DNA of 64,000 nt from Candidatus Falkowbacteria bacterium (GTDB taxonomy: Bacteria; Patescibacteriota; Patescibacteriia; UBA11705; JABHMO01). Below are positions 25,191-61,226 of the stretch, in pieces (within the stretch, counting starts at the first letter, position 1; each line of letters begins with the position of its first letter). Location: the NCBI GenBank assembly GCA_018674305.1, contig JABHAL010000004.1:446-64445 (forward strand), in the 5' to 3' direction. Below the pieces are notes generated by a model. It made no database searches. It was not told the origin of the DNA and worked only from the letters and a program-made list of their open reading frames with translations. The translations under genes and the position numbers were made by a program.

Positions 25191-25290
25191 AAATAATATA
25201 ATATTATTTAACACTCTTATTATACTACCACACTAATTTTCGAACCACAACAAAAAAGAGCCTTACAGTGTAGTAAGACTCTTGGTGCGG

Positions 25291-25845
25291 CTAAAAGTGG
25301 CCGCAGTATCCGTCCCAGTTGTCGACTGGGTATTGACTTTCGTCTAAGTTCCACTCACCTGTGTCCTCATCTTCCCAACCTTCACCGCAAGCGTAGCGGT
25401 AGGCCTGTCCTTCCTTCATCCCGAAGTAGAACTGGTGTGAGGCGTTGCGGCCCACCTGGTAAAACATTACCCCTTCCCGCTCCATTGAATACGGTTCAAG
25501 GCTGTCTTCAAACTCCAGATGCATGCGGATCATGGACTCAGCTCTTTCGTCGCCACCGTGCAACTTCTCAGCAAAGTCCTTAGCTGTGGCGTCACGCTTC
25601 GCGTCAACAATCTGATCATCAGCATACATTGCTTTCATCTGATCAATAATTGCCTGGTCTGTGACCAGCTCACGATCACCGAAGCTATTCTTGCGAAAAA
25701 ACACCATGCCGAAAAACGAACCTTCCGAGGTGACCATCTCGTGCTCAACCTGCCAGCCTTCTCCGATCTTGAACCCCTGGGTCTCCAGCGACTGACCATC
25801 GATCTCCACACCGGACCAAAAACTCACGTTCTTCTGCTGATTCAT
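25291..25845 (-). CDS. Hypothetical protein encoded in the GC-rich island
   Basis: 184 aa after trimming to MNQQKN with a GGAGG RBS. No family recognised. A terminator hairpin lies downstream at ~25255-25290. Confidence 0.45.
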   Translation of the reverse strand: MNQQKNVSFWSGVEIDGQSLETQGFKIGEGWQVEHEMVTSEGSFFGMVFFRKNSFGDRELVTDQAIIDQMKAMYADDQIVDAKRDATAKDFAEKLHGGDERAESMIRMHLEFEDSLEPYSMEREGVMFYQVGRNASHQFYFGMKEGQAYRYACGEGWEDEDTGEWNLDESQYPVDNWDGYCGHF

Positions 25846-25952
25846 GGTGAACCTCCAATGTATTATTAAATTTATTCTCTTCAAAAGTCAATCTTGCAAT
25901 TGACTGCTCAAGAGAGTCACCGTTGTCTGACAACGGATCATCTTTGCGTGAG

Positions 25953-26129
25953 TCACCTCTTTTTGACCCTTCCCATTCTGGGCATCCCCCCAGTGGGTTG
26001 CGAACGCATTGCCCGCTCGAACAGGTACTGCTCACGGGTTACGCTTCCACGCTCCCGACCACCAGCAGTAAACCCATTCTGACGAAGAAAACTCGTCGCC
26101 TCAGCCACCAGATTCCGCGCGTTCCGCAT
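25953..26129 (-). CDS. Small basic ORF (58 aa) directly downstream of promoter module 1
   Basis: Hand-translated as MRNARNLVAEATSFLRQNGF...GRVKKR with a GGAG RBS 8 nt upstream. It falls below the ORF-track length cutoff. Confidence 0.3.
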   Translation of the reverse strand: MRNARNLVAEATSFLRQNGFTAGGRERGSVTREQYLFERAMRSQPTGGMPRMGRVKKR

Positions 26130-26150
26130 TGGCTATCTCCTTTTGTTAAG

Positions 26151-26218
26151 CCATCAGAAAAATTAATTTTCATTAATTGCTCTGATGAATGCACAAGTAA
26201 ATGTTACTTATGCACAAG
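26151..26218 (-). promoter_or_regulatory. Promoter-like module copy 1 (conserved core plus direct repeat TGCACAAG x2)
   Basis: Shares catca...ttaattgctctgatga with copies 2-4. An RBS and ORF follow on the minus strand. Confidence 0.45.
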
Positions 26219-26812
26219 AAACGCAATGACAAGGGTTATCCACTTTACCGAGACATTTTCCCCATAATAGTATGACTTAACAACAATGGCTCACTAAAAG
26301 TCCATTGTCCCCTGTCTGAAAGGTTTGTCGCTAAGACTTTACCTTCCTTTTTAAAGAACCCTTTATAACCATAGAACGTGTATGGCTGGTTCTTTTCGTA
26401 ATGGTGCTTGCGTACACCTACGATCGTCCTAATGAACTCAACACTACCTTTTACTAGTGCTGTCTCACCCCATAGCCGGTTGAGCAATATGCTCCCGGCC
26501 TGCCCCTGAGCAACCCTTACACAATTTTTACTGCAAGTTATTGGTCATGTCGACTTAACAAATTACTTACACACTATTTTTTCGCAGTGAACTAGAATCT
26601 CAAATCTATGGCCCTTATCCCATAGACCCTCTAGCTCTGAAGAATAATATTTTCCAACGCTCCTAAGAGTCTGTTAGAAAAATTACTCTTCTCTTCAGGC
26701 TCCCCAGAAAACAACCATTGTCATGTGTTAGACAATAATCGTTTGTGAGTTCTGCCCTCGGTACTGGCTGCTGCGAACAACCTATCCCAGTGGTTTTAGA
26801 CTTTTCGCAAAG

Positions 26813-26878
26813 TCATCACAATAATCAATAAACATAATTACTCTAATGAGCACGCAAACACCTGCTACATGCGCTCGC
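26813..26878 (-). promoter_or_regulatory. Promoter-like module copy 2 (core plus imperfect palindrome gagcacgca...tgcgctc)
   Basis: gtcatcacaataatcaataaacataattactctaatga core. Sits just downstream of the small gene 26882..27064. Confidence 0.4.
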
Positions 26879-26881
26879 TAA

Positions 26882-27064
26882 CTATTTACTTGCACTTGGA
26901 GCCTTACACTCCTTACAACCTAGGCAAGGCGGGCGCCCAAACGGGTATTTTGGACAGTCTACCCGAACAGCAACCTCTCTCAAATACCTCTCATGCTCGT
27001 CTTCAATACTGAAAGGCTCGTCGGTCTCAAAATCCCAACCACTAATCATTTCGCCTTTTCTCAT
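26882..27064 (-). CDS. Small Cys-rich (zinc-ribbon) protein
   Basis: 60 aa from MRKGEM with an AAGGAG RBS. C-terminus CPKYPFGRPPCLGCKEC. Confidence 0.45.
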   Translation of the reverse strand: MRKGEMISGWDFETDEPFSIEDEHERYLREVAVRVDCPKYPFGRPPCLGCKECKAPSASK

Positions 27065-27080
27065 CACTATCTCCTTTATT

Positions 27081-27150
27081 AGAGTCATCAAAATAATCAA
27101 TTTTTATTAATTACTCTGATGATTGCACAAGCTCTAGGAGCTTGTGCAAG
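27081..27150 (-). promoter_or_regulatory. Promoter-like module copy 3 with the perfect palindrome GCACAAGCTC-TAG-GAGCTTGTGC
   Basis: Read on the minus strand as TTGTGC ... TAATTAAT ... AAGGAG ... ATG directly upstream of 26882..27064. Confidence 0.5.
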
Positions 27151-27837
27151 TAGGGAGATGACTGTAGGTGGACAATCATCAGTGCGACACTCACTCCCGA
27201 TCAAGAGAGTCTCCACCACCGCTGCTTAACGGCTGTCGCTTTGACCACACATCCTGGATTCTTGGCCACCCGCCTTGACCGCCCGAAGGCGAGGCAGGAG
27301 GCCTCCATCCAAGTTTCAAGTTAAGGGAGTGTGCGCCCCCTATAGCCTCAGTCAGTTTCTTGCATCTCCGCCCGGCCAAAGGCTTTGACACATGCGAGGG
27401 GTTGGCCTCGCTTCCGCTTTACATCGTATAAGACCCTTCCCCTGGGCCAAACACGCATTGCGGCATGGCCCGACACTGACTGATTTGCTCTACCTTTACC
27501 TTTAACATAGAATTTTATGTTAAATTCCCTGTGCTGGTAGCAGAGCGGGTCCCCTCCCGTAAGCTTGCGACTCACGACAGACAACCACCAACTTTACCGA
27601 CTCCACCTTATTGGCGTAAGGCAAGCCACTAACTTCCTTTGCTCCGACCAAGAGCTTGGACCACATCTTCTCAAGGTGACTCCCCCTGTCATTAGGGGCC
27701 CTGTTCACGATAACTCCGAAGAGCTTCTCGCTAGAAAATGTGGTGGAGATTTGGATAACAGGCAAGCCTGATACCCTGCCTTCCCCGGGATAGGGTAGAC
27801 ATATCGTTCCTTACGGAACTATCAGGCACTCCACAGC

Positions 27838-27902
27838 CATCGTAATAATCAAAGCTTTATTTAATTGCTACGATAGGTGCGCGAATATTTTTATTCACGC
27901 AA
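27838..27902 (-). promoter_or_regulatory. Promoter-like module copy 4 with the palindrome TGCGCGAATA-TTTTT-TATTCACGCA
   Basis: ccatcgtaataatcaaagctttatttaattgctacgata core. Upstream (on the minus strand) of the ORF-poor GC-rich core. Confidence 0.4.
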
Positions 27903-28519
27903 GAGTTTATTTGCGCAGTGGTAAAATGCTTTCATTTACCTGTCTAGGTTCTCGCTAAGAGTAGCCTAGACTTTTTGTATTTTGTTCTACAAAACCTTTA
28001 CTTCCTCGTATCACCTCCAATGGACGTTATCGATCTTTGTTTGGTGAGGTCAGCCAAGGCTTCAACCTGGGAAAGCAGCTGCGCGCTACCAACCGGTGCA
28101 ATATAGAACATAAATTGATAATGACCACATCTCATCCCCCAAGCCCCGAAGAACTTTAGGAAATGAGTCTAGTCTCATTAAGTTTATCTCTAAATCCCTC
28201 TGTAATATGTTGCCAGATAAATAAATTTGAATTAATGGCATTTATATAAGCGAGGGATATATTTCCGGAAACAAGGGTTCAGTTGTTACACCTACATCCT
28301 TATTTCTAGAATACAAGCAAATTGCCTGTACTGGTCGAGAACAAAAAACTTTTTTTTACTCAACATAGAAGTATAGCATGCATTTTAAAACTTGTCAAGT
28401 ACCGTCAACAAAAGTTTACTCGTTTCTACTTTTTTTATTTAATTTTAGCTAAATCATAACACTGAAAACTGTTGAAACGCTTCGTCGTAAATCGCGAGCA
28501 GAATCGCTTTAATTTTCCT

Positions 28520-28556
28520 AAAACAAAAACAGCCCCTTTAACAGGGCTGTTTTTAG
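28520..28556. terminator. Intrinsic terminator downstream of ileS (cagccctgttaaaggggctg plus T-run)
   Basis: Hairpin with run read directly. Confidence 0.7.
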
Positions 28557-28568
28557 AATATGCTTATC

Positions 28569-32335: not shown

Positions 32336-33259
32336 CTACAGGCCAAACTCTTTTGCTTTTGCCAAATATTCTGGCAAAGTACAATCGTAATGAACTGACC
32401 AATTAATCAATCTTAGAAACAATTGAAATTGATTTTGATCTGCCACAATCTCTTGCAATCGTTGGTGATTAGCCTCTACACCTGCTTTCAACTTGGGTAG
32501 ATTTGATTGGTCCCAAATTGGGTCATCTTCATGCTCCCATTTATCTGACATAATCTGAAAAACTGAACCATTCAAACACTCAAAAAGATGGGGGAAGAAA
32601 AAACCAAGTTGACCTTTGACAATCCAATCTTCTGGAGTCATTCCCAACTCCATCCACAAAGCACCACTTTCGAACATATTAATCAAAAATGGATCTGCTG
32701 GCTCATCAAGTCCCAGTGACTCACTGCTCGTCGCCCCAGCTGCCACTCGCAATGTATCCAGAACCCGAAGAAAATTGACCCAATCTTCTGGAGATTCTTC
32801 ATCCAACGTGTAAGGAAATTTTGTCCGTAGAATATCTTTAAAATACTCAGGAAGATAATGACTAGTAAGACCTATCTTGAGTGGAGAAAAGATTCCATTA
32901 AATTCATCTATTGAAATCCCCAAACTTTTTTCTTCTGGAGATTCTACTGCGTTGCCATTATGACTAGCATCATGTCCAAGCCATCTCAAACAAATATCAA
33001 ACAAAATACTCCCATCACAATCTTTTTGATTTTCAAGCAAATAGCACAATCCATACAAAACATGGATTGGACCATGATAAGGAACTTTCTCATCATAGTG
33101 CTTATCTAGAAACTTTTTCACCAGGTTGACAGCTCTAATGCTATTGTAAGAAATACAAGTTTCTGGATCATCAAAAAGCTCTTTCAACAGATAAGCAACA
33201 TGGAGCCAAATTCGATATTTTTCTCTAATTCGACCAGCAAAATTCGGAAAGTTACTCAT
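32336..33259 (-). CDS. Hypothetical protein (possible divergent HD-like metal-dependent hydrolase)
   Basis: 307 aa with H...HD-like spacing (GPIHVLYG...WLGHDASH). Weak. Confidence 0.35.
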   Translation of the reverse strand: MSNFPNFAGRIREKYRIWLHVAYLLKELFDDPETCISYNSIRAVNLVKKFLDKHYDEKVPYHGPIHVLYGLCYLLENQKDCDGSILFDICLRWLGHDASHNGNAVESPEEKSLGISIDEFNGIFSPLKIGLTSHYLPEYFKDILRTKFPYTLDEESPEDWVNFLRVLDTLRVAAGATSSESLGLDEPADPFLINMFESGALWMELGMTPEDWIVKGQLGFFFPHLFECLNGSVFQIMSDKWEHEDDPIWDQSNLPKLKAGVEANHQRLQEIVADQNQFQLFLRLINWSVHYDCTLPEYLAKAKEFGL

Positions 33260-33423
33260 TGAAGACCTCCACTATGTTTAAGAACAATTTCTCTTACGTA
33301 CGGTAAGATTAAACTAATTTATCACTCAAAAACCATCCTGTCAACCCTACTGTTGACAAAAAGAGAAATTCATGATAAGTTTATTGGTAATTTAATGTAT
33401 AATAAAAAAAAGGAGAACTGAAA

Positions 33424-34608
33424 ATGACGACTGAACTGGTAAGAAAAGAACCTAGTTCGTTGACAACTTTAACTGAAGAAGAACAACCCAGTATTTTTTG
33501 GAAATTTAGGCAAATTTTCGAAGCTGATTGGTGTACTGATAGAAAAATCTACTGGTATGATGTCCGCTTCAATCGTACTCGTCTCTGGCAAATTACTCAA
33601 CTGAATCGAGTATCCAAGAAACAAGACAAACTGTTGGGTATTTTTCCTGGTGAACCGGATGTCGACGTTCTTAAGCTAGCAATTGCTGGAGCAAACATTG
33701 AACGTATTTTAACTGGCGTACGCTGGGAGATTTACTCTGACTTTGCCTGCAATCAACTGGTCACTATGGGCCGCTTTGATGTGATTGATTTGGTACCCGC
33801 TGATCGAAGTAAATTGGAACAGCTGTTCAGATCAAATCATGTTGGCGTAAAATCATCAATCAAAGACTGGGACTTTGATGGGATCTTCCGAACTCATATT
33901 TGTCCTAAATGTCAAAAGGCCTACAGTCAAGATCTGCTAATGTTTATCCCTGATTGGATGCACTGTAGCAGTTGTGGTTTTTCTCTAAGTAAAGATAGCG
34001 GAGCCTTTTCTGCTCTGCTTAAAAACTTACTCGTTCAACTAGCCAGATCAAATGAATTCCGCTTTCCCGTTGAAGACAAAACAAATATTCCAGTGGCTAT
34101 TCAACTGATTGACGTACTTCCTACTCCGCTGATTGCCCATATTATTGGTGAACTTCTTGGCGGTGCACCTTTATCACATTCGTATGGTATGGGTTTAGGG
34201 ATGGAGCCTAATGATTTAATCACTTGCTTGGAAATGAGCCTTTTTCACAAAATAAGAATTCCAATCATTCGTGATGGGTTCATTGATTTTGTATCAGTTT
34301 TCTTTGATGAGCAAATTGCGCATTATCAAAATGGTGGCTCATTACCCAAAATGCCTATGCCCGAAATGACAGAGAGTCAACATCGGGAGTATCTTACCAA
34401 AAACTGGAGCGAGACAAAGCAACATTTCGTTGATCAAACCATGTTGCTATCTAGTTTATCTGACTGGTTTCTTGGCCGTAAGGTGACTAAGGCTGAAGAG
34501 TTCCAAAATACTGGCGCTTTTAAGAAAGCTTTACACGGATATGCTTATAATCTGGAAACACTAATTGAATTACTATGGCAAGAAAAAATGGAGGCTAGCC
34601 ATGAATGA
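33424..34608 (+). CDS. Hypothetical Zn-ribbon protein, paralog A
   Basis: 394 aa with shared GRFD and WDFDG plus CxxC...CxxC modules also found in the downstream gene. Confidence 0.5.
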   Translation: MTTELVRKEPSSLTTLTEEEQPSIFWKFRQIFEADWCTDRKIYWYDVRFNRTRLWQITQLNRVSKKQDKLLGIFPGEPDVDVLKLAIAGANIERILTGVRWEIYSDFACNQLVTMGRFDVIDLVPADRSKLEQLFRSNHVGVKSSIKDWDFDGIFRTHICPKCQKAYSQDLLMFIPDWMHCSSCGFSLSKDSGAFSALLKNLLVQLARSNEFRFPVEDKTNIPVAIQLIDVLPTPLIAHIIGELLGGAPLSHSYGMGLGMEPNDLITCLEMSLFHKIRIPIIRDGFIDFVSVFFDEQIAHYQNGGSLPKMPMPEMTESQHREYLTKNWSETKQHFVDQTMLLSSLSDWFLGRKVTKAEEFQNTGAFKKALHGYAYNLETLIELLWQEKMEASHE

Positions 34609-35653
34609 TCTGATTCGTTTGAAGGATGTACGTTTGCCAGCTGTGCCCGTGGAACTTCCACCTCTTGAAGGTGAAGGTTTGAACCATGGTAAATTAATTC
34701 TCGCACCTGGAGCTAGGAGCGCCGAACAAGTTATTGCGAATTACCGAAACAAGTTTTCACCAGAATCGCAACGTTGGTTCAGGCGTTACTACCTAAAAGC
34801 ACATCGCAATCGAGATCGTACTTCGATTCGCTATGCTTGGAACCTTGATGCGCCGTTGACTGATCGCACCGTCGGGGTTTTCAAGGGTGATGACTTGGCC
34901 GCTGCGCAGATTCTGATCGGTAACAACATGGCCGGCACGTCGATGGGTTCTATTTCCTGGCACTTGTGCGAAGATCGAGACGGAGAAGAACCGATTGCTC
35001 TCGGTCGCTTCGACCCCTGGAGCTTGCTTCAGGACATTTCGCCTGCTGATATTGTCCGCTTGCGTGATCAACGAGGCTTAGTCCCTGATCTTGATCGTTG
35101 GGACTTTGACGGTTTCTACATGCGCCGAACTTGTCCTCAGTGCAACACCAAGATTTCTATCAACATGTTTGCTTTCAACATAGACTCTGCGCAATGTGAC
35201 AAGTGTGGCGTTCGGCCCTTCCTATCAAGGGCACTTGGCAACATGCTTCGAATGGCTCTTCCGGCAGTGACCGGGAAAGGCAATCAAATCCTTTCCGCTG
35301 ATGATGCCTTACTCCATACTGTTGAATGGCTTGGCGGAGTTCATGCCGGAACTGAGCATTTGCACCAGGAAGAATTGCCCGATGAGATTACTCCACAAAT
35401 CATGATTGATGGACTACTGAAAAATTCTCGACTTCTGGCTTCTGCGCCAGAAGGACGATTTGCTCTATCTCCGGTTGTAACGGCTCATCTAGCTGATGAT
35501 CATGATTCACGTTCCCTGGTTATCGGTGCAGCCAACACTTTGGCTCGAGTCATCCAGGAAGGTGGCCCATTTACTGACACCCATGCAGCGACTGCACGCC
35601 TACTTCAATTAGTAGAACGTGATGCGCTAAAGGCGCAAAGAGAACTTACCTAA
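34601..35653 (+). CDS. Hypothetical Zn-ribbon protein, paralog B (translationally coupled, higher GC)
   Basis: Start MNDLIRL with a GGAGG RBS, overlapping the upstream stop (ATGAATGA). Shares LGRFD, WDFDG and CPQC...CDKC with paralog A. Confidence 0.5.
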   Translation: MNDLIRLKDVRLPAVPVELPPLEGEGLNHGKLILAPGARSAEQVIANYRNKFSPESQRWFRRYYLKAHRNRDRTSIRYAWNLDAPLTDRTVGVFKGDDLAAAQILIGNNMAGTSMGSISWHLCEDRDGEEPIALGRFDPWSLLQDISPADIVRLRDQRGLVPDLDRWDFDGFYMRRTCPQCNTKISINMFAFNIDSAQCDKCGVRPFLSRALGNMLRMALPAVTGKGNQILSADDALLHTVEWLGGVHAGTEHLHQEELPDEITPQIMIDGLLKNSRLLASAPEGRFALSPVVTAHLADDHDSRSLVIGAANTLARVIQEGGPFTDTHAATARLLQLVERDALKAQRELT

Positions 35654-35659
35654 AATAAT

Positions 35660-35690
35660 AGCGTGAACCACATTGGTTCACGCTTTTTTA
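35660..35690. terminator. Bidirectional intrinsic terminator (agcgtgaacca cat tggttcacgct TTTTTT)
   Basis: Perfect 11-bp stem between convergent genes. Confidence 0.85.
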
Positions 35691-36263
35691 TTACTTTGAA
35701 AACTCTTGGCCTAGCCAAATCTTATTGTCTCGATCATCTTGGTCAGTATGCGATTCTAGCTTTCTCATCAACTTCGTAATTGTGTCAAAATGAACTGGAC
35801 TAAACTCCCAAGAATCAACATCAATCGGACAAGACAAACCATGTGGCTCAAGTAGGCCATGTGAATGACCAAATAAATGCCAGGACCCCTTAAAAGCATG
35901 GTTCCAAGTCCGCATTGCATAGTGATTGAGAAAAATTCGCTGCCTTTTCACTCGAATCTCTTTTTGCTGGCAAATCCATTCCCAGGGCAACTTTTTCATT
36001 TGATGCATTTTGTCATGGTTGCCAATGATCAAAAATTTTCTGCCTGGCATTAGTCTAAACATCGCTTCCATGCGAGCAAAGGCAATCCGCCAATAGAACA
36101 CATCACCCAGACAGTAGACGAAATCTTTTGGCTTAATAACTGCATTCAGATTTTCTAAAATTGCTTCGTTCATTTGCTTAACATTATCAAATGGACGATT
36201 GCAATATTCAATAATCTTTTCATGAAAAAAATGTGGATCAGAATAAAACCAAGTCTCTGACAT
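35691..36263 (-). CDS. Calcineurin-like metallophosphoesterase
   Basis: GDVFYW, GNHD, GHSHG motifs. Confidence 0.75.
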   Translation of the reverse strand: MSETWFYSDPHFFHEKIIEYCNRPFDNVKQMNEAILENLNAVIKPKDFVYCLGDVFYWRIAFARMEAMFRLMPGRKFLIIGNHDKMHQMKKLPWEWICQQKEIRVKRQRIFLNHYAMRTWNHAFKGSWHLFGHSHGLLEPHGLSCPIDVDSWEFSPVHFDTITKLMRKLESHTDQDDRDNKIWLGQEFSK

Positions 36264-36324
36264 TACTTCCTCCTAGGGTAAATGTTTTCATTACAATTTA
36301 TATTAATTTAATTATCTTGTCAAC

Positions 36325-36358
36325 AAGGCATTCAAAAAAAACGTCCTGGAATTATCCA
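36325..36358. terminator. Intrinsic terminator downstream of the CYTH gene
   Basis: acgtcttggataattccaggacgt plus an 8-T run on the minus strand. Confidence 0.65.
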
Positions 36359-36375
36359 AGACGTTGTATTTCTTT

Positions 36376-36981
36376 CTACAAATATTCAGCCAGAAGTTCT
36401 TGCAACTGCGACTGATTCAAAGTTGCGAGATGAACATTAGAAAAACGCTCATCGGTACTTACATCAATTACTCCACACTCCTTCATCCATTCAGGTAATT
36501 CATTTGGAAATCGATTTGGGCGCGGATCACCTGAATCATCTCCCAATTCTATCTCGACCATATACAAGCCCTCAAGCTCGCCACGAAAAACATCGACCTC
36601 AAAAAACCAACCACCAAAGCAAACAACGTAACGAACCTTTTCAACGAAGCAAGTACAACCTTCCACCAGCTCATTGAAAAGTACATCATCAATGTGATTT
36701 TCAAATTCCAGACGAGAAATGATTCCTCTCCCAAGATCATTCTTTTGCCGAGCACCCTTTACCGTCAAGAAACCTTGGTCATCCTGCCGACGTAAACGAA
36801 TAATCCTGCCCTTGCCCACAACATCAAGATAGTACTGCTTAATCTTCTTTCCCAAGCTGAGCTTTTCATTTGGCAAAGAATGCAAAAGGAACTTCTTTTC
36901 ACTTTCTAGCTTCATAATTTCCCCCAATTTAATGAACACTTTCGAACAGACTAATATAACAACTAAAAATTGTATTGTCAA
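36376..36981 (-). CDS. CYTH-domain protein (CyaB/inorganic triphosphatase-like)
   Basis: N-terminal EKKFLL and an E.E.K pattern characteristic of CYTH. Confidence 0.55.
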   Translation of the reverse strand: MTIQFLVVILVCSKVFIKLGEIMKLESEKKFLLHSLPNEKLSLGKKIKQYYLDVVGKGRIIRLRRQDDQGFLTVKGARQKNDLGRGIISRLEFENHIDDVLFNELVEGCTCFVEKVRYVVCFGGWFFEVDVFRGELEGLYMVEIELGDDSGDPRPNRFPNELPEWMKECGVIDVSTDERFSNVHLATLNQSQLQELLAEYL

Positions 36982-37024
36982 TAGTTAGTAAACAAAAACA
37001 CACCAACCTTAATTGATGTATTTT

Positions 37025-37101
37025 TGGTGGACCCGGCAGGGATCGAACCTGTGACCTCCTCGGTGCAAGCGAGGCGCTCTAGCCAACTGAGCTACGGGCC
37101 C
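37025..37101 (-). tRNA. tRNA-Ala (anticodon UGC)
   Basis: A hand-folded cloverleaf gives the anticodon loop CTTGCAC, a G3:U70 pair and a GTTCGATCC T-loop. CCA is encoded. Confidence 0.85.
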
Positions 37102-43963: not shown

Positions 43964-44074
43964 GTCCTGGCGACGACCTACTTTCCCACTGTGTAGTATC
44001 ATCGGCGCTACAGGGCTTAACTGCTGTGTTCGGGATGGGAACAGGTGTGGCCCCTGCGCTAGAGTCACCAGGAC
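43964..44074 (-). rRNA. rrf: 5S ribosomal RNA
   Basis: The reverse complement matches 5S conserved blocks (CCTGGCGAC...CATCGGCGCTAC...TTCGGGATGGGAACAGGTG). A flanking processing stem cagagacatagtcctgg / ccaggactatgtctctg is present. Confidence 0.85.
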
Positions 44075-44159
44075 TATGTCTCTGTTTAAATAGAATATTT
44101 GATTCAAGTATAATAATTACAATTTGTAATCCGAAAATGTGAATATTAACATTATAGTG

Positions 44160-47140
<2,981 letters not shown>

Positions 47141-49808: not shown

Positions 49809-50687
49809 ATGGCTGACAAAAAAATTGCACTTGTTTGGTTCAAACCTCGCAATGTGCACACAAAAGAGGAAAGCTTTCAAAAATACATTGAAACACTAGC
49901 AGCAAAAGCTGCAAAAATTCGAAAGCAAATTGGCATCAACTATTTGCCACATCAGTCAGAATACATTGGAGTGGTTGGCGGTGATGGTCCTCAGATTGAA
50001 AGAGCAAAAGAGTTTGCCCATCTAGGAATTCCGATTTACGGAATCAATATGGGAACATATGGATTTCTTCTCAATAACCACGGTGATAACGATGATATTC
50101 GTGCAGCGATTGAAGCTGCCGTCTGGATCAAATTCCCTTTGCTGGATATTGAAATTGAATACCTTGATGGCTCAATTGATAAGACTCTGGCTTTTAACGA
50201 CCTATACACAAAAACCTCTGGGGTTCAAACCGCAAAACACAGAGTTTTTGTGAATGGTGAAAACATTATTCCTCAGGTCTTTGATGATCGGGAAACTTTC
50301 GCCATGGGTGACGCTGTAATTGTTTGCTCTGCAGGTGGTTCGACTGCCTACAACCGAGCAGCCGGTGGAAAAGTTTTTTCTCCCAACGCTAAGGTTTTTG
50401 GCATTACCATTGCATCTCCGTTTCCGATTCCATTCAAACCGATTCAAGTGCCTGATACCAGTGAAGTTGTCATTGAAGTTCTGGAAGATGAAAAGCGTCA
50501 ACACATGATTATTGCGGATAATGAAGCCTACACCGATGTACGAAAAGTTACTATCCGCAAGTCTGAATTGACGGTTACCCTGGGCTTCAAGCCTGGTGAA
50601 ACGCATCAGGACAAAGTCAAGAAAATGGAACAAAACCTAAGAGCTTGGAAAAAGAAAGCTCAAGAAAACGGAGGCCAAAATGCTTGA
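49809..50687 (+). CDS. nadK: NAD+ kinase
   Basis: GGDG motif and AGGSTAY. Confidence 0.65.
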   Translation: MADKKIALVWFKPRNVHTKEESFQKYIETLAAKAAKIRKQIGINYLPHQSEYIGVVGGDGPQIERAKEFAHLGIPIYGINMGTYGFLLNNHGDNDDIRAAIEAAVWIKFPLLDIEIEYLDGSIDKTLAFNDLYTKTSGVQTAKHRVFVNGENIIPQVFDDRETFAMGDAVIVCSAGGSTAYNRAAGGKVFSPNAKVFGITIASPFPIPFKPIQVPDTSEVVIEVLEDEKRQHMIIADNEAYTDVRKVTIRKSELTVTLGFKPGETHQDKVKKMEQNLRAWKKKAQENGGQNA

Positions 50688-51969
50688 CATGAAGCGCCTC
50701 AAAGAAGAGCGCAAAAAGATCAAGAAGATTCTCTACACACCTGATGAAGTCAAGGCAATCATTGCCGGAATCAAGCCGATCATTCAGGGAATTTCCGATG
50801 AAGATGTGTACAAGTTCACGATGCAACAGGGCGCCTATCTCGGACAGTCTTTCAATGGCTCAAAGAACTTTTGCGATCTGGATGTAGAGTACGACTTTAA
50901 CGATCGGAAAGGTACGGTTTACCCAGAAGGCTTTGCCGATGCAGTTACGCGCCAGGTCCGACTCATGGGCAATATGCGTCTCCAAGACTGGGAACGAAAA
51001 GGCTTTGAAAGCATGTCCTGGTTCAAGCGAAGCTATCTTGATTTTCTCAGTAGCTATCGCTATGACCCGAGTGAAGTTACAGTTCGACAAGACAGAAAGG
51101 GGCGCCTTTTTATCAAAGTAAACGGCCCCTGGTATCGTACGATCCTGTGGGAAGTTCCCATCCTGGCGATTGTCAGCGAGCTGTACTTCCACATGACCGG
51201 ACAGACTCCGAACGTTGAAACTTTTGAGACCAACCTGGTCAACAAGACCTTCAACTTCAATCGTCCTGGCTTCACTTACATCGACTTTGGTACCCGTCGT
51301 CGAGTTTCTTACCTGACCCAGGAAGCAGTTTGTCTCTATATGGCACAGACCATTCCTGACAACTTCCTTGGTACGAGCAATTGCTATATTGCTTTCAAGA
51401 ATGGACTCAAGGCGTTCGGTACTCATGCTCATGAATGGTTCATGGCACACCAAGCGATGTTTGGTACTCGCATGGCCAACGAAATGGGTTTAGAATCCTG
51501 GGTTCGTATGTACGATGGTGCACTGGGCATTGCCCTTACCGACACTTTCACCACTGCGAACTTCCTTGAGGCTTTTGGTAAGCGTTACGCTGAGCTTTTC
51601 ACTGGAGTTCGTCACGACAGTGGCTGTCCATTTGAATTTGGTGAAGCGATAATCAAACATTACGAAAGGCTGGGAATTGACCCCAAAAGCAAGGCCATCG
51701 TCTTTAGCGATGGACTGGATGACAAGCTGGCCGTTGAACTTCACGAAAAGTTCTATGGCCGTATCGGCGTATCCTTTGGTATCGGAACATTCTTATCCAA
51801 TGACGTTGGATTTAAGCCCCTATCCATTGTGATCAAAATCAGCAAATGTCGATGGTTAGGAACTGAACGCTGGATCTACGTAGTCAAACTGTCCGACAAT
51901 CCAGCCAAACACCACGGTCCGCCAGAGGCTATTACCAATACTCAGTATGACATTGGTTTAGCAGCTTAA
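50680..51969 (+). CDS. pncB: Nicotinate phosphoribosyltransferase
   Basis: DFGTRRR, VRHDSG, and C-terminal GIGTFL motifs. Confidence 0.8.
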   Translation: MLDMKRLKEERKKIKKILYTPDEVKAIIAGIKPIIQGISDEDVYKFTMQQGAYLGQSFNGSKNFCDLDVEYDFNDRKGTVYPEGFADAVTRQVRLMGNMRLQDWERKGFESMSWFKRSYLDFLSSYRYDPSEVTVRQDRKGRLFIKVNGPWYRTILWEVPILAIVSELYFHMTGQTPNVETFETNLVNKTFNFNRPGFTYIDFGTRRRVSYLTQEAVCLYMAQTIPDNFLGTSNCYIAFKNGLKAFGTHAHEWFMAHQAMFGTRMANEMGLESWVRMYDGALGIALTDTFTTANFLEAFGKRYAELFTGVRHDSGCPFEFGEAIIKHYERLGIDPKSKAIVFSDGLDDKLAVELHEKFYGRIGVSFGIGTFLSNDVGFKPLSIVIKISKCRWLGTERWIYVVKLSDNPAKHHGPPEAITNTQYDIGLAA

Positions 51970-52185
51970 ACTTAAACATAACCCTACTTTCACACTTGGA
52001 AGTAGGGTTTTTTTGTCACAAACAAACGACTTTGTTTTCCCAAAGGGACCAGATTGTGGTAAATTAAAACAAAAACTACACAAAACAGTTGACTTTATGT
52101 GAAAAGTATGTTGTAATTATTAATCGTTTACTAGGTACCTACTACCTTAGACTAGATATCTAAAAAGTAGGGAAGGAGTTCTTTT

Positions 52186-52680
52186 ATGAGTACCGTAACA
52201 ATTGGCCTGTTTGGAACTTGTGGTGGCAGTGTTTGGCGGGATACTTTCATGAAACGCTATGAACAAGAAGGTATCGCCTTTTTCAACCCAGTGGTTGAAG
52301 ACTGGGATCCCAGCATGGCCGAGGTGGAAGCTGAACATCTGGCAAACGATGAAATCATCCTGTTCCCTGTAACCAAAGAGTCCTATGGCTCTGGTTCATT
52401 GGCAGAGGTTGGTTTCTCCATTCTCCAGGCCATTCGCCTGGATGACCGGCGCGACTTTGTCATCCTGATCGACATGGACCTGGATGAAAGCTTGGATGAC
52501 CCGATTGCACGGAAAGACTCTATCAGGGCCCGCGCCCTGGTCAAGCAACATCTGAAGAAGCAACGGCTCAAGAACGTGTACTTGGTTGAGTCGTTGGAAG
52601 AAATGCTGGAAGTAAGTGTGCAACTGCACGAAGCCGCCAGCATCCACAGTGGACTGAGGAGATTCAATCCTCACCGCTAG
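52186..52680 (+). CDS. Nucleoside 2-deoxyribosyltransferase-like protein (paralog of 48069..48536)
   Basis: Shares the W..E...DEIILFPV..ES.GS..E.G pattern. Confidence 0.4.
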   Translation: MSTVTIGLFGTCGGSVWRDTFMKRYEQEGIAFFNPVVEDWDPSMAEVEAEHLANDEIILFPVTKESYGSGSLAEVGFSILQAIRLDDRRDFVILIDMDLDESLDDPIARKDSIRARALVKQHLKKQRLKNVYLVESLEEMLEVSVQLHEAASIHSGLRRFNPHR

Positions 52681-52689
52681 ACAACCATG

Positions 52690-52728
52690 AACCGCATCAA
52701 CATCTTAATGTTGATGCGGTTTTTCATT
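52690..52728. terminator. Intrinsic terminator (accgcatcaacat ctta atgttgatgcggt TTTT)
   Basis: Perfect 13-bp stem. Confidence 0.85.
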
Positions 52729-52776
52729 ATTATACAATTATAAAAAGTCCTGGTAGTTACCAAGACTTTTATGTTT

Positions 52777-53838
52777 TTATTTCCTTCCAGCAAACGTGTC
52801 AAAGAATTCAACTCCCAACGCTTTAGCGTCTCGGAAAGTTCGATTAAACTCCTGCCATTCCACAGGTATTGATTCCAACCCAACATTGGCTCCAATTAAC
52901 GCACCCACAATTGCCGCATTAGTATCAGTGTCACCGCCAGCGTTAACTGCTTCCAGTACACCTGCTCGGAAGTTAGTTGGATTACGAAAGAAAATTGCAA
53001 TGGCAAAAGGAATTGATTCCAAGGAATAACAACTACAACCGTTTTGTTGAATCAAGCCATTTAGATTCGACAGCAAACCATTCTCATGAATCTTTTGTAA
53101 CCGGTCTGAAATTTTATCAGTATAATCATGGTAAGCTGAATACAATTTTTCAGCAGCCCTGACCGTTTTGACCAAAGCCTTGAACTTCAAATCTACCTTT
53201 CTAGAACCAACGTCCATTTCATCCTTAACCGATGAGGACATTAACCAGCAAATTGCATAAGCAGCAATCGAAGCACGAATATCTGAATGAGTGGCCATAC
53301 CCTGCTCCACACATATAGACATCATTTTACCACCAGTTACTCCACCATTAGCTAGGGCAACATACATAGCCAGTGGCGCAATTTTCATAGCTACGCCATT
53401 GCCACAACCCTGATTCGGCGCTGGTCGATTACTATGATTTCTCGGATCCTTGCCTTCCCGACCATCAGTCTGAAAAAAACGTTGGATCTGAAAAATAGAA
53501 TTCCGCGTTGAGCCTCCCCAACCAGCAGTACTTTCATTAGCTTCACGAATCTGCTCTTTGAGCATATCCTCAAAATCATAACCCTTACAACGAATCAATG
53601 ATTTTGCCAACGCTCGAGTCAACTGCCAGTCATCAGTAGTTTCACCAGCTTTAAAATTACTAATGCTATCAAAACGAGTTTGCTTAGCATCAAGAAAACC
53701 AGTAACACCACCTGGTACAGCTTTTTCTATCTGATCATCAGTCATAGTTTCAACGGGCATGCCCATTGCATCGCCAATGGCAACGCCAAGAAAGCAAGCC
53801 TGAACTTTACTGCGGAATAATTCATTCAAGTCCTGCAT
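52777..53838 (-). CDS. ADP-ribosylglycohydrolase family protein
   Basis: FLGVAIGDAMGMPVE signature and C-terminal acidic metal-site residues. Confidence 0.75.
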   Translation of the reverse strand: MQDLNELFRSKVQACFLGVAIGDAMGMPVETMTDDQIEKAVPGGVTGFLDAKQTRFDSISNFKAGETTDDWQLTRALAKSLIRCKGYDFEDMLKEQIREANESTAGWGGSTRNSIFQIQRFFQTDGREGKDPRNHSNRPAPNQGCGNGVAMKIAPLAMYVALANGGVTGGKMMSICVEQGMATHSDIRASIAAYAICWLMSSSVKDEMDVGSRKVDLKFKALVKTVRAAEKLYSAYHDYTDKISDRLQKIHENGLLSNLNGLIQQNGCSCYSLESIPFAIAIFFRNPTNFRAGVLEAVNAGGDTDTNAAIVGALIGANVGLESIPVEWQEFNRTFRDAKALGVEFFDTFAGRK

Positions 53839-54006
53839 GAGAACCTCCATATATTTATTTTTTACAAAGAACCGTTCATAGACATTATATATTATAGTAT
53901 TAATAATTTTTAGTCAATGATAAAAAACATATATATTAATTGACAATTTGGCTTAATTTTCATACAATTAAGTATAAATATGTTCATTCAACAAAGGAGA
54001 AAATAA

Positions 54007-54470
54007 TGAAGAACTCATCTTGGATTGTTGTTTTTATGTTTTCATGTTTTTATGTTTTTATGTTCAATGGTTGTTCAATCATTAAAAAACAATGCGAAGC
54101 CCCACCAGGACCTTGCGACATCGCCGACTGGCAAACGCATTGCAAGCAAAGCATTGATGATTTGGACTGGCTAAGGGCTCATTACTTCAACAACACTTAT
54201 TGCTTTTGCCAAGATCTAAAAACCACAGCAATTATTGTTTCAGATGAATGTTTACAATTAGCTGACAAAGCTGAAACCGAAAGAGACAAACGAGAATATC
54301 TAGTCACAGCTGGTCATCTTATCCTCTACTATGCATTTGACGAGTGCGATAAACTTGGCTCAGTTGTTTATGACAGATTAACCAAAGCCAAATTACATAA
54401 ACAAGCCAAGCAGTTTGCTAAAGAATGCAAGATTGCACATTACCAACTCTCAGAAGAAGAGTTACCATGA
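54007..54470 (+). CDS. Putative lipoprotein (signal peptide plus lipobox-like NGC)
   Basis: AAAGGAG RBS. A TTGACA-17-TACAAT promoter lies upstream at ~53940. Confidence 0.45.
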
Positions 54471-54482
54471 AAAAATATTAAA

Positions 54483-54517
54483 CCCCACCTTCTATTAAAG
54501 GTGGGGCTTTTTCTTTA
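54483..54517. terminator. Bidirectional intrinsic terminator (ccccacct...aggtgggg TTTTT)
   Basis: Perfect 8-bp stem between convergent genes. Confidence 0.8.
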
Positions 54518-55300
54518 CGGAGTAAAGAAATTGTTTTGAGCACTCTTCGGATTAACCTTGGCCTGTGATGCGCGGATCACAGACTGACTAACCAGTTGGA
54601 AAACCCGACGAACATCAGACGGGGTATCACCAGCTTCAAGAACTGCACCAGCCGGAATACCCATGTCCTTGGCCACATCTTTGAATCCGTGATTTCCCAA
54701 TCCAACCATAGCCAGAACAAAGGTTTCAGAATCCAGAAGATCCTTGGCCAAAGTTGCACAATCCGCAGCAGTGTGCTGACGAGAGCCATAATCCTGACCA
54801 TCAGTAATCACTACAGCAATGCTACGCACAGTTGTTCCAGAGTCGCGAAGCTGCTGAGCATAAGTAACATTAGCAGACAAAGTCTCAACCCACTTGTCAT
54901 AAAGAGGAGTGCAACCACCAGGATGGTAACTTTTATTATCCAATTTTTCAGCATCCACAACTTTCAGATAAGAGTGATAAGGGTTGTCTCTGTTCAAGGC
55001 CCACATTCCAAGCAAAAATGAATCCTTCTGTTTGGAATCAACCAGCGCTTCAATCAAAGCATTCTGGCCATCAATAACCGCACCAACAACATCCCACATA
55101 GAACTTGAGTCATCAATCAAGAGACTTACCAAGGCAACTTCAGTTGCATCGATCTCATCAAGGTCCAATCCATCGCAACCCATGAGAACATTATCATCAA
55201 GACTTACGCACATTAGGTCACGCGATGGCAAAGAGATGATCCCATGATCAGCTGCATCACCTAGAACACTTTTTACAGTACCAATATCAGGTTTACTCAT
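54515..55300 (-). CDS. von Willebrand factor A domain protein (TerY-like)
   Basis: MIDAS DDSSSM and VVITDGQD motifs. Confidence 0.6.
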   Translation of the reverse strand: MSKPDIGTVKSVLGDAADHGIISLPSRDLMCVSLDDNVLMGCDGLDLDEIDATEVALVSLLIDDSSSMWDVVGAVIDGQNALIEALVDSKQKDSFLLGMWALNRDNPYHSYLKVVDAEKLDNKSYHPGGCTPLYDKWVETLSANVTYAQQLRDSGTTVRSIAVVITDGQDYGSRQHTAADCATLAKDLLDSETFVLAMVGLGNHGFKDVAKDMGIPAGAVLEAGDTPSDVRRVFQLVSQSVIRASQAKVNPKSAQNNFFTP

Positions 55301-55416
55301 AATAATCTCCTATGAGTTAAAAGATTAAAGTTGAAAGTTAAACACAAGAAATTAACTCAGACAAAGACGGTTCCCTCCTCCGACTTAAGTCGGAGGAGGG
55401 TTTGTTATTTTTAGGT

Positions 55417-56412
55417 TTACGCAGCGATGTCGATAACGTCAGTAGACTTGACTACGTGCATACCCGCAGCGCGGAAATCATCCAGCGCATCCTTGGCCAT
55501 CTGCGGGAAGTCAACGATAACTGCACCAGTATTAGGATCAGTCACGGCCGGAACCGGAGACATGCAATCCTCCAGAATATAAACCTTGTCCACCAGACTA
55601 GGATCAACAGCGTTAATTTCACGCAGCAAGTCTTCAATCGTGGTCTTAACGCAATGACTGGAAGCCTGACCAGCAATGTAGATCCGATCATTTTCCATCA
55701 AAGCCTTGAAGAACTTGGTATTGAACTGGCCAACCACTCGACCAGCCACATCCTTCACTTCAGGCGAAAGAACTGAATAGTTCTCAGTCAGAGGATGAAC
55801 ACCCTTGGTCTCAAACTTGGTCTGCTTGCGACGAGCTACTGCATGGAACATAGCTGCTTCAAAAACTGCCGGAACCATCGCATGCCCAACACAACCAAGC
55901 ATGGTGTGATACGGCCAAACGCAAAGCATATATTTGCCAGTTTTCTCAAGCTCCTCGCAATATGCAATGCACTCATGCGGATAAAGTGCTGGCACATACT
56001 TGCCACTCTTAATATCCGCAACAGAAATGAGCGTGAACGGAGCAGGGTGCTTGCCGGTTGCACTCTCAATCCAGAAAGAAGGATGGAAAATCTGGTAAGC
56101 TTTGTGCGTATCCAGAGAAAAATGCATCTCTGTGATCAGCCCCAGATTTTTGTAAATGAACTCACACAATCTGGCACTGTCTTCCATTGCGCCAGGGACA
56201 GACAAACTACCAGAAGTCAAACAAAAATCATTCTGTACATCAATACCGAAAAGTGCAATTTTGAATTTATCATCTACTGACGGCTTCAAGCCATGCACCT
56301 TGGCAAAATCAGTTGCCTCCTCAGCAACCATCGCCTTACGAGAAAGATACAGATCGCCAACCTTGCTAGCGTCATAAAAACTCGGAAACGGAAAAATTTT
56401 AGCATTACTCAT
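55417..56412 (-). CDS. Isochorismatase-family hydrolase (divergent nicotinamidase-like) with an N-terminal extension
   Basis: IALFGIDVQNDFC motif. GGAG RBS. Confidence 0.5.
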   Translation of the reverse strand: MSNAKIFPFPSFYDASKVGDLYLSRKAMVAEEATDFAKVHGLKPSVDDKFKIALFGIDVQNDFCLTSGSLSVPGAMEDSARLCEFIYKNLGLITEMHFSLDTHKAYQIFHPSFWIESATGKHPAPFTLISVADIKSGKYVPALYPHECIAYCEELEKTGKYMLCVWPYHTMLGCVGHAMVPAVFEAAMFHAVARRKQTKFETKGVHPLTENYSVLSPEVKDVAGRVVGQFNTKFFKALMENDRIYIAGQASSHCVKTTIEDLLREINAVDPSLVDKVYILEDCMSPVPAVTDPNTGAVIVDFPQMAKDALDDFRAAGMHVVKSTDVIDIAA

Positions 56413-56451
56413 AATAGGCTCCTAAAAAGTTAAAAGGTAAAAGTAATAACA

Positions 56452-58269: not shown

Positions 58270-58374
58270 TGCTTCCTCCGGAAGAAATTCTAATTTCCTA
58301 AATCCTAAACATCAAATAATATCAAATGTTCAAACCAATAAATTTAAATTTTGAACTTTGTATTTGTTTAGAAT

Positions 58375-59154
58375 TTAGATATTAGTGATTGGGATTTGTA
58401 ATTCTTGCTTTCTAACAAGAATTACCGTTGTATCGTCATGTAAAAGTTTATGATTATTACCAAGAACGTTCAGTCGCTTTTGAACCAAAGCTTTATTTTT
58501 CAAATACTTTGACCCAGTTTCAAAATCTAGCAAGTCTCCAACTTTCATTTCTTTGCCAAGCAAAGAAATATCTTCCTCACTTCTTTCAAATAACTCACTA
58601 AAGCCATCGGTGGCAATTAGCAAACTGTCGACTTCAGAAGTTGGTAGGTCATGCTGAATTTTAACTTTTGCTGAACCATAAGTTAAATATTCAGGTTCAT
58701 TATTTTGATCAATTTCTGTAACTTCTCCATTCAGAGAAATCACCCCATCACCAAAGCTAAAGATAATCGTTCTTTCTTCGGTCAAAATAAATCCGACCAA
58801 AGTAAAAAGCCAATAACTATAGGTGTCAGGAGCTTCTACTATCCCTAAACACTGATTAAAGCGACGCAGACTAAGCAAAAATTGCCTGGCCGCATCGTTC
58901 AAAAAGTACTCCCAATCATTTGGCAATTCATCTGGACAAATTTCAATCATCTGTCGTAAATGATTAGCCATAAATCGGACTCCTAACTTCGCTCCTACTT
59001 CAGAATGCCTCCCTGAGCCACAACCATCACTAACTAAACCAATAACTACTCGTTCAGTTGTGGCAATAGTTAAAGCATCTTGATTGTTCTTGAAACCTTT
59101 GTGATGATAAGATCCAATGACGCTTCCACCTTGAATAGCGAATTTATCCAACAT
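58375..59154 (-). CDS. PP2C-family Ser/Thr protein phosphatase
   Basis: LVSDGCGSG and LLIATDGFSE motifs. Confidence 0.6.
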   Translation of the reverse strand: MLDKFAIQGGSVIGSYHHKGFKNNQDALTIATTERVVIGLVSDGCGSGRHSEVGAKLGVRFMANHLRQMIEICPDELPNDWEYFLNDAARQFLLSLRRFNQCLGIVEAPDTYSYWLFTLVGFILTEERTIIFSFGDGVISLNGEVTEIDQNNEPEYLTYGSAKVKIQHDLPTSEVDSLLIATDGFSELFERSEEDISLLGKEMKVGDLLDFETGSKYLKNKALVQKRLNVLGNNHKLLHDDTTVILVRKQELQIPITNI

Positions 59155-59291
59155 TATATTTCTCCTATTTATGTAACTATGATTGTCAAAGTTCTATACT
59201 CACTATGAATTCTTCCTTGTAAAAAGCCGAAGCAAATCACAGAGAAGAAAAACGCAAGATGTAATTTCCCCACAATATGTTTTTAGGAAAT

Positions 59292-59353
59292 AGTGTAATG
59301 AATACACTTTTGTCTTACAGTTTAATCATAGTGTACTTTTTACACATTGTCAA
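59292..59353 (-). promoter_or_regulatory. Minus-strand sigma70 promoter TTGACA-17-TATGAT with GTGTA-N5-TACAC in the spacer, plus a second GTGTA-N5-TACAC copy 40 bp away
   Basis: Reverse complement: cttgacaatgtgtaaaaagtacactatgat. The second palindrome is agtgtaatgaatacact at 59292-59308. Confidence 0.6.
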
Positions 59354-59511
59354 GTCTTTTTGTTAATTTAAAACAAAAACTAGCTAAAGTTAGCTAATAA
59401 TTCCTGTGGGCAAAGGGTTAAAAATGACACTTATGTTTAAATTGAATCCTTGTAATCTCGTAAACAAAAAAACGTCTACTTAACTTTGTAAGTAGACGCT
59501 TATGATTTCAG

Positions 59512-61123: not shown

Positions 61124-61226
61124 TTTGCAACCTCATTGTAAAGATCTATTATTCAATAAAATTCATAAATATATTCTGAACTTTATTGAATGGGAATTAG
61201 CTATGAGCTAATTCCCATGTGTTTAT

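Follow-up and report, generated by a model that had tools for sequence, protein, structure and literature searches.

A paired family of predicted zinc-ribbon proteins without known relatives in Candidatus Falkowbacteria and other Patescibacteria

What do two adjacent and related genes encode when little beyond a zinc ribbon can be recognised in either? The question is raised by positions 33,424–35,653 of the window, a 64-kb low-GC (guanine plus cytosine, 38%) bacterial chromosome segment of Candidatus Falkowbacteria (contig JABHAL010000004.1), which also carries an isoleucyl-tRNA synthetase gene (IleRS), a 23S-5S rRNA unit, two tRNA genes and many housekeeping genes. The first-pass annotation of this segment, made from the sequence, had described two coupled plus-strand genes for paralogous zinc-ribbon proteins with a GC jump in the second, and had suggested recent acquisition or a compositional constraint behind the jump and a conflict, toxin or nucleic-acid-targeting role for the pair. 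Our analysis indicated that gene 1 (g1) and gene 2 (g2) belong to a small and isolated protein family, in which the two genes always stand side by side. NCBI lists the exact gene 1 product as a hypothetical protein from a Candidatus Falkowbacteria metagenome-assembled genome (MAG). The coding features are as follows, all on the plus strand.

33,424–34,608, plus: gene 1 (g1), an open reading frame for 394 residues, the more variable paralog with the longer C-terminal helical domain
33,490–33,981, plus: shared module of g1, residues 23–186, from hhalign and the DSSP assignment of the model
33,901–33,975, plus: predicted four-cysteine (C4) zinc ribbon of g1, C160/C163/C181/C184, from the invariant cysteines and weak but consistent zinc-ribbon profile matches
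34,601–35,653, plus: gene 2 (g2), 350 residues (351 codons with the stop) from an ATG start, from the open reading frame and the starts of orthologues
34,727–35,212, plus: shared module of g2, residues 43–204, homologous to g1 residues 23–186 by hhalign
35,132–35,206, plus: predicted C4 zinc ribbon of g2, C178/C181/C199/C202, followed by the invariant R205-P206, from family alignments and zinc-ribbon profile matches

Two related proteins and their shared module

Comparison of g1 and g2 by BLASTP revealed 25% identity over 147 residues (g1 43–185, g2 63–203) with an E value of 5e-15, and hhalign of the two family profiles aligned g2 43–204 with g1 23–186 at a probability of 99.5 and an E value of 6e-23. 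The two proteins are true, ancient paralogs over about 160 residues; their C-terminal helical halves are not alignable. The common core and zinc ribbon seen at first pass were thereby borne out, and the shared motifs survive a proper alignment of 97 family members (49 g2-class and 48 g1-class sequences), which show little or no variation in GRFD, WDFDG, CPxC and CxxCG. Of the lengths first given, 394 residues holds for gene 1, and the 351 of gene 2 includes the stop codon. A longer TTG-initiated gene 2 frame, from 34,565, is unsupported, all orthologues starting at the MNDL/MSDL position.

Both proteins carry a predicted zinc ribbon with an invariant C4 site, the four cysteines being kept in 98–100% of the 97 sequences at the g1 and g2 sites. 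The universal signature of the family, in g2 numbering, comprises R49, I106, W120, G135-R136-x-D138, L142, W167-D168-F169 and the four cysteines. On this common ground each class has residues of its own. The invariants of the g1 class are D68, E102, G116-R117-F118-D119, D122, W149-D150-F151-D152 and H158, and of these D68, E102, D122, D152 and H158 are kept at no less than 96% within the class. The g2 equivalents are relaxed (D88 71%, E121 65%, D170 84%), with the histidine replaced by arginine, and the residues invariant only in g2 are G107-N108, D125, W140, D195-S196 and R205-P206. An N-terminal extension with the pattern LP..P...G.NL (residues 10–40) is found only in g2 and is well ordered in the model.

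AlphaFold2 models built with the family alignments reached a predicted local distance difference test (pLDDT) score of 91.1 and a predicted template modelling (pTM) score of 0.84 for g2, and 81.5 and 0.80 for g1. In both models the element order assigned by DSSP is a helix, three strands, a helix, two strands with a short loop between them, two short helices, the zinc ribbon and an all-helical C-terminal domain, and in the g2 model strands 4 and 5 are joined by a 7-residue hairpin loop. Both proteins are soluble and mildly acidic to neutral (isoelectric point 5–8), with no membrane segment. Foldseek searches of the PDB with both models and of BFVD with the g2 model returned nothing below an E value of 0.27, and the matches to HIV reverse transcriptase, ASKHA, TetR and vinculin tail were dismissed as noise (query TM score at most 0.21). 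Searches of Pfam, NCBIfam, PHROGs and PADLOC with the single proteins and with all 34 alignment members gave only sub-threshold zinc-ribbon matches of about 30 residues, and searches of PDB sequences with phmmer and three profiles gave only generic zinc-ribbon noise. Many members matched zinc-ribbon models (Zn_ribbon, S27e, YheV and RpoP) at E values from 1e-3 to 0.3, but none of these matches reached a curated cut-off. When the family profile was compared by hhalign with staphylococcal nuclease and with the SSB and pyrophosphatase of E. coli, the probability stayed below 0.1. The early impression that nothing else in the two proteins is recognisable thus stands for Pfam, NCBIfam, PHROG, PADLOC and PDB, generic zinc ribbons apart, and neither protein has a significant match to a characterised housekeeping family in Pfam, NCBIfam, the solved structures or Foldseek.

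The family itself is small and isolated. Word-indexed searches recovered 11 relatives of g1 (6 at first) and 25 of g2, and a joint-profile HMMER scan of 1.84 billion representatives recovered 82 proteins (clusters), 80 of them at E values of 1e-10 or less; the last of the 82 is a eukaryote-type C2H2 protein aligned on its cysteines only. Members with a named source come from Candidatus Falkowbacteria, Kuenenbacteria and Uhrbacteria, together with a divergent clade in Taylorbacteria and "Parcubacteria" (g1' of 339–362 residues and g2' of 330–343 residues). The strict motif WxLCEDR[DEA]G was matched in only 6 of 185,579 GTDB species representatives. A metagenome search by degenerate DNA pattern yielded 13 stretches, 8 of which are true family loci. 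No family copies were found in IMG/VR, among INPHARED phages or among PLSDB plasmids, and a full-text literature search found no description of the family. Some carriers are labelled otherwise, two MAGs as "uncultured Gammaproteobacteria" and one as "Planctomycetota" (L012/L013, that is CAYOMV010000026.1 and CAZSVL010000005.1, and L031/P0031); every other member is from Patescibacteria, and these labels of pair-bearing contigs are probably binning or labelling errors. The pair constitutes a new protein family without known relatives, as judged for structure by Foldseek on the PDB and BFVD; "new" refers to the protein family and not to a mechanism.

One of the closest likenesses is to classical C4 zinc ribbons (S27e/S27ae/eL43, RNA polymerase subunit P/Rpo12, the TFIIB N-terminal ribbon, YheV and ZPR1), in which, as in g1 and g2, two CxxC knuckles lie 17–18 residues apart, each on a beta-hairpin. 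The similarity consists of the weak, repeated, sub-threshold matches of about 30 residues from many family members. Classical ribbons are small stand-alone proteins or terminal domains, whereas the ribbon of g1 and g2 is internal and fused to a conserved module of 120 residues and a helical domain.

Several catalytic folds were considered and rejected. TnpB and Cas12-type RuvC nucleases resemble g1 and g2 in size (350–400 residues), conserved D/E residues and a C4 finger, but their finger splits RuvC-II from RuvC-III, whereas the ribbon of g1 and g2 follows all conserved acidic residues; likewise, an RNase H fold has a helix between strands 4 and 5, where g1 and g2 have a hairpin. No OrfB_Zn_ribbon or RuvC profile was matched, and the surroundings of the pair showed neither transposon ends nor an adjacent RNA. 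A RuvC/RNase H-like nuclease (TnpB, Cas12 or transposases) was rejected on the hairpin, the ribbon placement and the lack of profile matches, and the Foldseek matches to HIV reverse transcriptase and ASKHA were not accepted as support for an RNase H-type fold (E value at least 0.4, TM score at most 0.14). The spacing of 44 from E124 to D168xD170 equals what we take to be the spacing in E. coli DnaG; Toprim was nevertheless dropped, since the DxD is not at a strand end and the fold is not Rossmann-like. Also set aside were the archaeo-eukaryotic primase DxD/sxH (wrong spacing), PD-(D/E)xK (a helix stands in place of the required hairpin, and lysine is absent) and HNH (no conserved His or Asn within the ribbon).

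Operon organisation, pairing and genomic context

The sequence signals around the two genes suggest a compact operon:

33,330–33,423, plus: upstream control region of the operon, a putative promoter, from sequence and alignment with the upstream region of Kuenenbacteria locus L001
33,353–33,358, plus: TTGACA box, from sequence
33,398–33,403, plus: TATAAT box, from sequence
33,412–33,415, plus: gene 1 Shine-Dalgarno GGAG, from sequence
34,590–34,594, plus: gene 2 Shine-Dalgarno GGAGG, within the 3' end of gene 1 and 6 nt before the ATG, from sequence
34,601–34,608, plus: start/stop overlap ATGAATGA, the gene 2 ATG lying over the gene 1 TGA, from sequence
35,660–35,690, both strands: bidirectional intrinsic terminator closing the operon, from hairpin and T-run scoring

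About 95 nt 5' of g1 are kept in the orthologous Kuenenbacteria locus L001, including the TATAAT box and the g1 ribosome-binding site, and this control region probably acts as the promoter. The TTGACA and TATAAT boxes are 39 nt apart, and TTGACA was thus not taken as a true -35 element. The TTGACA box is also the right arm of a palindrome in the divergent promoter region, TGTCAAC-CCTACT-GTTGACA, with 7-bp arms at 33,339–33,358; the palindrome is probably no conserved operator, because its left arm is not kept in the Kuenenbacteria locus. At the junction of the two genes, the ATG/TGA overlap and the preceding GGAGG were confirmed, and the translational coupling that they had been taken to show is a likely consequence of this layout. 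Each of the six orthologous loci inspected has GGAGG or GAGGA ahead of gene 2. The junctions across loci comprise overlaps of 4, 8, 14 or 20 nt and gaps of 15 or 41 nt, with overlaps of 4–20 nt in most orthologous loci. The terminator noted downstream is indeed perfect, with an 11-bp stem (35,660–35,684), a 3-nt loop and a TTTTTAT tail, and it is common to the convergent phosphoesterase gene ending at 35,691, as it reads on the opposite strand too. In the loci examined the pair is mostly bordered by opposite-strand genes, and it is therefore likely to be its own transcription unit.

Wherever a locus is long enough, the g1-class gene stands directly before the g2-class gene in the same orientation. 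The analysis covered 16 distinct contig types in which both genes can be seen, and a further one in which g1 is truncated by the end of the locus; the contig types include Falkow-, Kuenen-, Uhr- and Taylorbacteria, the divergent clade, and unbinned contigs from groundwater or sediment. Over 13 pairs, the pairwise identities of g1 correlate with those of g2 (r 0.88, Mantel p ~2e-4), and g2 is the more conserved in all 78 pairwise comparisons. The duplication is therefore older than the split of the ABY1-type and Parcubacteria-type lineages, and both genes have been passed on together since then.

The neighbours of the pair differ from lineage to lineage, in these contexts:

window, L001 and L005: IleRS upstream of the pair, tRNA-Ala(UGC) downstream
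L003: NDK, pair, UvrD
L007: S12-S7-EF-G, pair, M50 peptidase
L008 and L009: CDP-alcohol phosphatidyltransferase, pair, Mur ligase
L030 and a JGI contig: GatCA, pair, LigA
L017: radical-SAM, pair, SMC
L019: pair, TsaD
Taylorbacteria: ClpB-like, pair, HAD, SerRS; L022 has the same downstream side

In about nine independent contexts, the genes next to the pair have housekeeping roles. A search for conserved neighbours, proposed with the first description of the locus, found no partner gene conserved across lineages; only the pair itself is always adjacent.

Deeper synteny is visible in the Falkowbacteria/Kuenenbacteria group (window, L001 and L005), where IleRS lies upstream and tRNA-Ala(UGC) downstream of the pair. 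Comparison of the window with L005 gave identities of 45% for IleRS, 44% for g2 and 31% for g1, and comparison with L001 gave 91%, 79% and 74%, with 49% for the ATP-grasp and 44% for the methyltransferase gene. Between the pair and its IleRS/tRNA-Ala anchors, other genes come and go. The interval from the pair to tRNA-Ala(UGC) holds a metallophosphoesterase gene and a gene for a 201-residue protein matching phrog_6660 in the window (35,691–37,101), genes for a Na/Ca-exchanger-like and a 177-residue protein in L001 (9163–11383) and no genes in L005 (9123–9199); it is a small variable spot beside a tRNA gene. The divergence between the window and L001 is unusually uneven, with 91% for IleRS against 49% and 44% for the syntenic ATP-grasp and methyltransferase genes; recombination, non-orthologous replacement or inconsistency in the taxonomy of the MAGs may account for it. 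On the other side, divergent from gene 1, lies a gene for a 307-residue protein (32,336–33,259, minus strand), another orphan, which is not beside the pair in other genomes and has no Pfam, PHROG or PADLOC match.

The pair is single copy in the window, and no flanking terminal direct or inverted repeats were found around it. In these comparisons it behaves like stably inherited cellular genes and not like a rapidly exchanged accessory module.

Candidate functions of the pair

We favour, at a probability of roughly 40%, a composite reading in which the pair is a chromosomal, vertically inherited operon for a heteromeric cytoplasmic complex with a metal-dependent activity directed at nucleic acids or nucleotides. 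In this reading g1 and g2 would assemble in a roughly 1:1 ratio, and the complex would bind a divalent metal together with a nucleic-acid or nucleotide ligand. The chemically active subunit would be g1, which has the invariant carboxylates D68, E102, D119, D122, D150 and D152 and places H158 beside the first zinc knuckle; g2 would serve as a conserved partner or scaffold, since it keeps the fold signature while its acidic positions are partly relaxed and it is otherwise more constrained. The shared module has the element order of an OB/SNase-type barrel followed by the zinc ribbon, after which the two proteins continue into unrelated helical domains. The heteromer part of this reading is much more secure than the chemistry part. 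In line with the pairing, g1-class and g2-class sequences are near-equal in number (48 and 49). A metal-dependent nucleic-acid or nucleotide activity is suggested by the pairing, the barrel order with a C4 site and the g1 carboxylate/His set together. We infer the physical heteromer, the metal and nucleic-acid ligands and the barrel fold from these patterns.

OB and staphylococcal-nuclease-type barrels have the order strand-strand-strand-helix-strand-strand, and a barrel followed by a C4 finger occurs in RecO, in NAD-dependent DNA ligase (LigA) and in RPA (RPA70 DBD-C and archaeal RPA). The element order of g1 and g2 resembles that of these OB and zinc-finger proteins (in the ligase, the OB-C4 finger-HhH part) and is likewise followed by a C4 site and helices; their strands also carry conserved aromatic and basic residues (RRYY, Y/W and RW). 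There is, however, no similarity between them in sequence, profile or Foldseek comparison, and g1 and g2 are not basic. The likeness seen in the models is one of layout, not membership.

Four points weigh against the composite reading. Neither Foldseek nor hhalign gave a structural or profile match for an OB/SNase-like barrel or for any enzyme class. Neither protein is basic overall, which is atypical of general nucleic-acid binders. The acidic residues of g1 could be fold-stabilising, in salt bridges with the invariant arginines. The patchy distribution, with 6 of 185,579 representatives for one strict motif, would also fit an accessory role.

A non-enzymatic zinc-ribbon adaptor or regulator is a rather unlikely alternative. 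The two proteins would then be structural scaffolds, in which Arg, Asp and Trp residues hold the barrel and ribbon, and their complex would either bind another macromolecule, such as a component of the translation or replication machinery, or act as a transcription factor, in both cases without catalysis. The residues common to both paralogs (R49, W120, G-R-x-D, W-D-F and the four cysteines) do resemble a fold signature, and the sole profile similarities are to the zinc ribbons of ribosomal proteins, RNA polymerase subunit P and TFIIB. Translation genes (IleRS, S12, GatC and TsaD) adjoin the pair in 4 of about 9 independent contexts, but this enrichment is not significant, given an estimated share of about 17% of such genes in small genomes (binomial p ~0.2–0.3, an estimate). 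Moreover, the g1-specific invariant D/E/H set exceeds what a fold core usually needs, and profile searches detected no DNA-binding motif such as a helix-turn-helix.

A bolder form of the enzymatic interpretation is doubtful: that the pair is the founding member of a structurally new, Patescibacteria-restricted heterodimeric metalloenzyme, with an unseen barrel-plus-zinc-ribbon module, a carboxylate/His site in g1 and a degenerate but constrained g2. It would carry out a reaction on nucleic acids or nucleotides for which other bacteria use unrelated proteins, as a lineage-specific replacement of a function that is seemingly missing from these reduced genomes.

Equally doubtful is an autonomous two-gene conflict module for anti-phage defence or of toxin-antitoxin type, in which one paralog would sense or neutralise while the other acts on nucleic acid. 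Like the two-gene defence and toxin-antitoxin modules in PADLOC, the pair is a compact, autonomous operon of overlapping genes with a patchy distribution among Patescibacteria; it has a control region and a terminator to itself and lacks conserved partner genes. Variable genes lie around it near a tRNA gene in the window and L001, and between these two the pair diverges faster than IleRS (74–79% against 91% identity). At long range, however, g2 diverges like IleRS (44% and 45%); over deep divergence it is the pair that keeps its place between IleRS and tRNA-Ala and not the genes around it, and its conservation exceeds that of the ATP-grasp and methyltransferase genes nearby. None of 34 members matched a PADLOC model, IMG/VR and the phage and plasmid collections hold no copies, and every lineage has housekeeping genes directly beside the pair (IleRS, S12/S7/EF-G, GatCA, LigA, TsaD, SMC, ClpB or Mur ligase), with no defence-island or mobile context. 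Both partners are also large paralogs of similar size, unlike typical toxin-antitoxin pairs. With no repeats around the pair either, the conflict, toxin or nucleic-acid-targeting module proposed at first pass is unsupported. The probability that remains, beyond these readings and foreign DNA (below), falls to something else.

GC content, other features of the window and meaning of the family

Gene 2 is richer in GC than gene 1 and the genome, as had been noticed, with 0.496 against 0.401 and a mean of 0.385 for 51 other open reading frames of the window (z 2.2 for gene 2); two further frames have a GC content of 0.50–0.51. Analysis by codon position indicated that the excess lies mainly at positions 1 and 2 (z 2.4 and 2.6, and 1.05 at position 3), and Gly, Ala, Arg and Pro together account for 31% of the residues in g2 and 19% in g1. 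The GC content at third codon positions (GC3) of g2 is 0.427, whereas its amino-acid sequence and the codon usage of the window would predict 0.328 (z 4.2). The GC jump is a by-product of a composition rich in Gly, Ala, Arg and Pro and of a modest synonymous GC excess. Because each of the six orthologous loci measured has a g2 richer in GC than g1, and a g1 equal to or richer than its flanks, the GC difference is a conserved trait of the g2 family and not a mark of recent transfer. Of the two causes first suggested, the compositional constraint is upheld, and recent acquisition is contradicted by the six loci, the excess at codon positions 1 and 2 and the synteny that extends to 45% identity in IleRS. 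A recently acquired piece of foreign DNA or a mobile element (a transposase-like pair) has next to no probability left, for although gene 2 lies 11 points above the window average in GC and its GC3 exceeds the expectation, the order recurs in different genomes, the co-inherited gene 1 has host-like GC, a larger synonymous GC3 excess occurs in 5 of 50 other window genes (mostly in an NAD-salvage cluster at 49.8–62 kb), the pair is single copy without terminal repeats, profile searches found no transposase, integrase or RuvC/OrfB signature, and synteny is conserved.

This cluster (49,809–61,868) comprises genes for NAD kinase, nicotinate phosphoribosyltransferase, a deoxyribosyltransferase-like protein, two isochorismatase-like proteins and NAD synthase, for NAD salvage and synthesis. 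Its GC content reaches 0.51 and its GC3 0.59, clearly above the rest of the window, and the genes may represent a metabolic block gained by horizontal transfer. A second unusual stretch, about 3.2 kb just 3' of IleRS (25,250–28,560), has a GC content of 0.42–0.57, contains no open reading frame above 127 residues in any frame even with TGA readthrough, and has no Rfam match at an E value of 0.1 or less. Parts of it are about 75% identical to a gene-free Kuenenbacteria stretch (L001 1454–2363), and a 65-nt repeat recurs within it (26,133–26,197 and 27,067–27,131); the stretch may specify a large non-coding RNA or be the remains of a gene. An open reading frame at 25,291–25,884, with a GC3 of 0.62 and no Pfam match, may belong to this stretch. 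The 23S and 5S rRNA genes lie at 43,965–47,140 on the minus strand, and no 16S rRNA gene was detected in the 64-kb window; the organisation seems to be one of unlinked rRNA genes.

In the very small genomes of Patescibacteria, a large share of genes has no assigned function, and orphan families are common; the pair is a clean and tractable example. It has been kept since before the split of the Falkowbacteria and Parcubacteria groups, and it offers confident models and clear invariant residues in proteins with no known relatives. If the two proteins form an enzyme or a nucleic-acid-handling complex, they would represent a new pairing of fold and function and could explain a function that is seemingly absent from Patescibacteria. 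If they are a structural adaptor, they would still be a useful marker family for these lineages.

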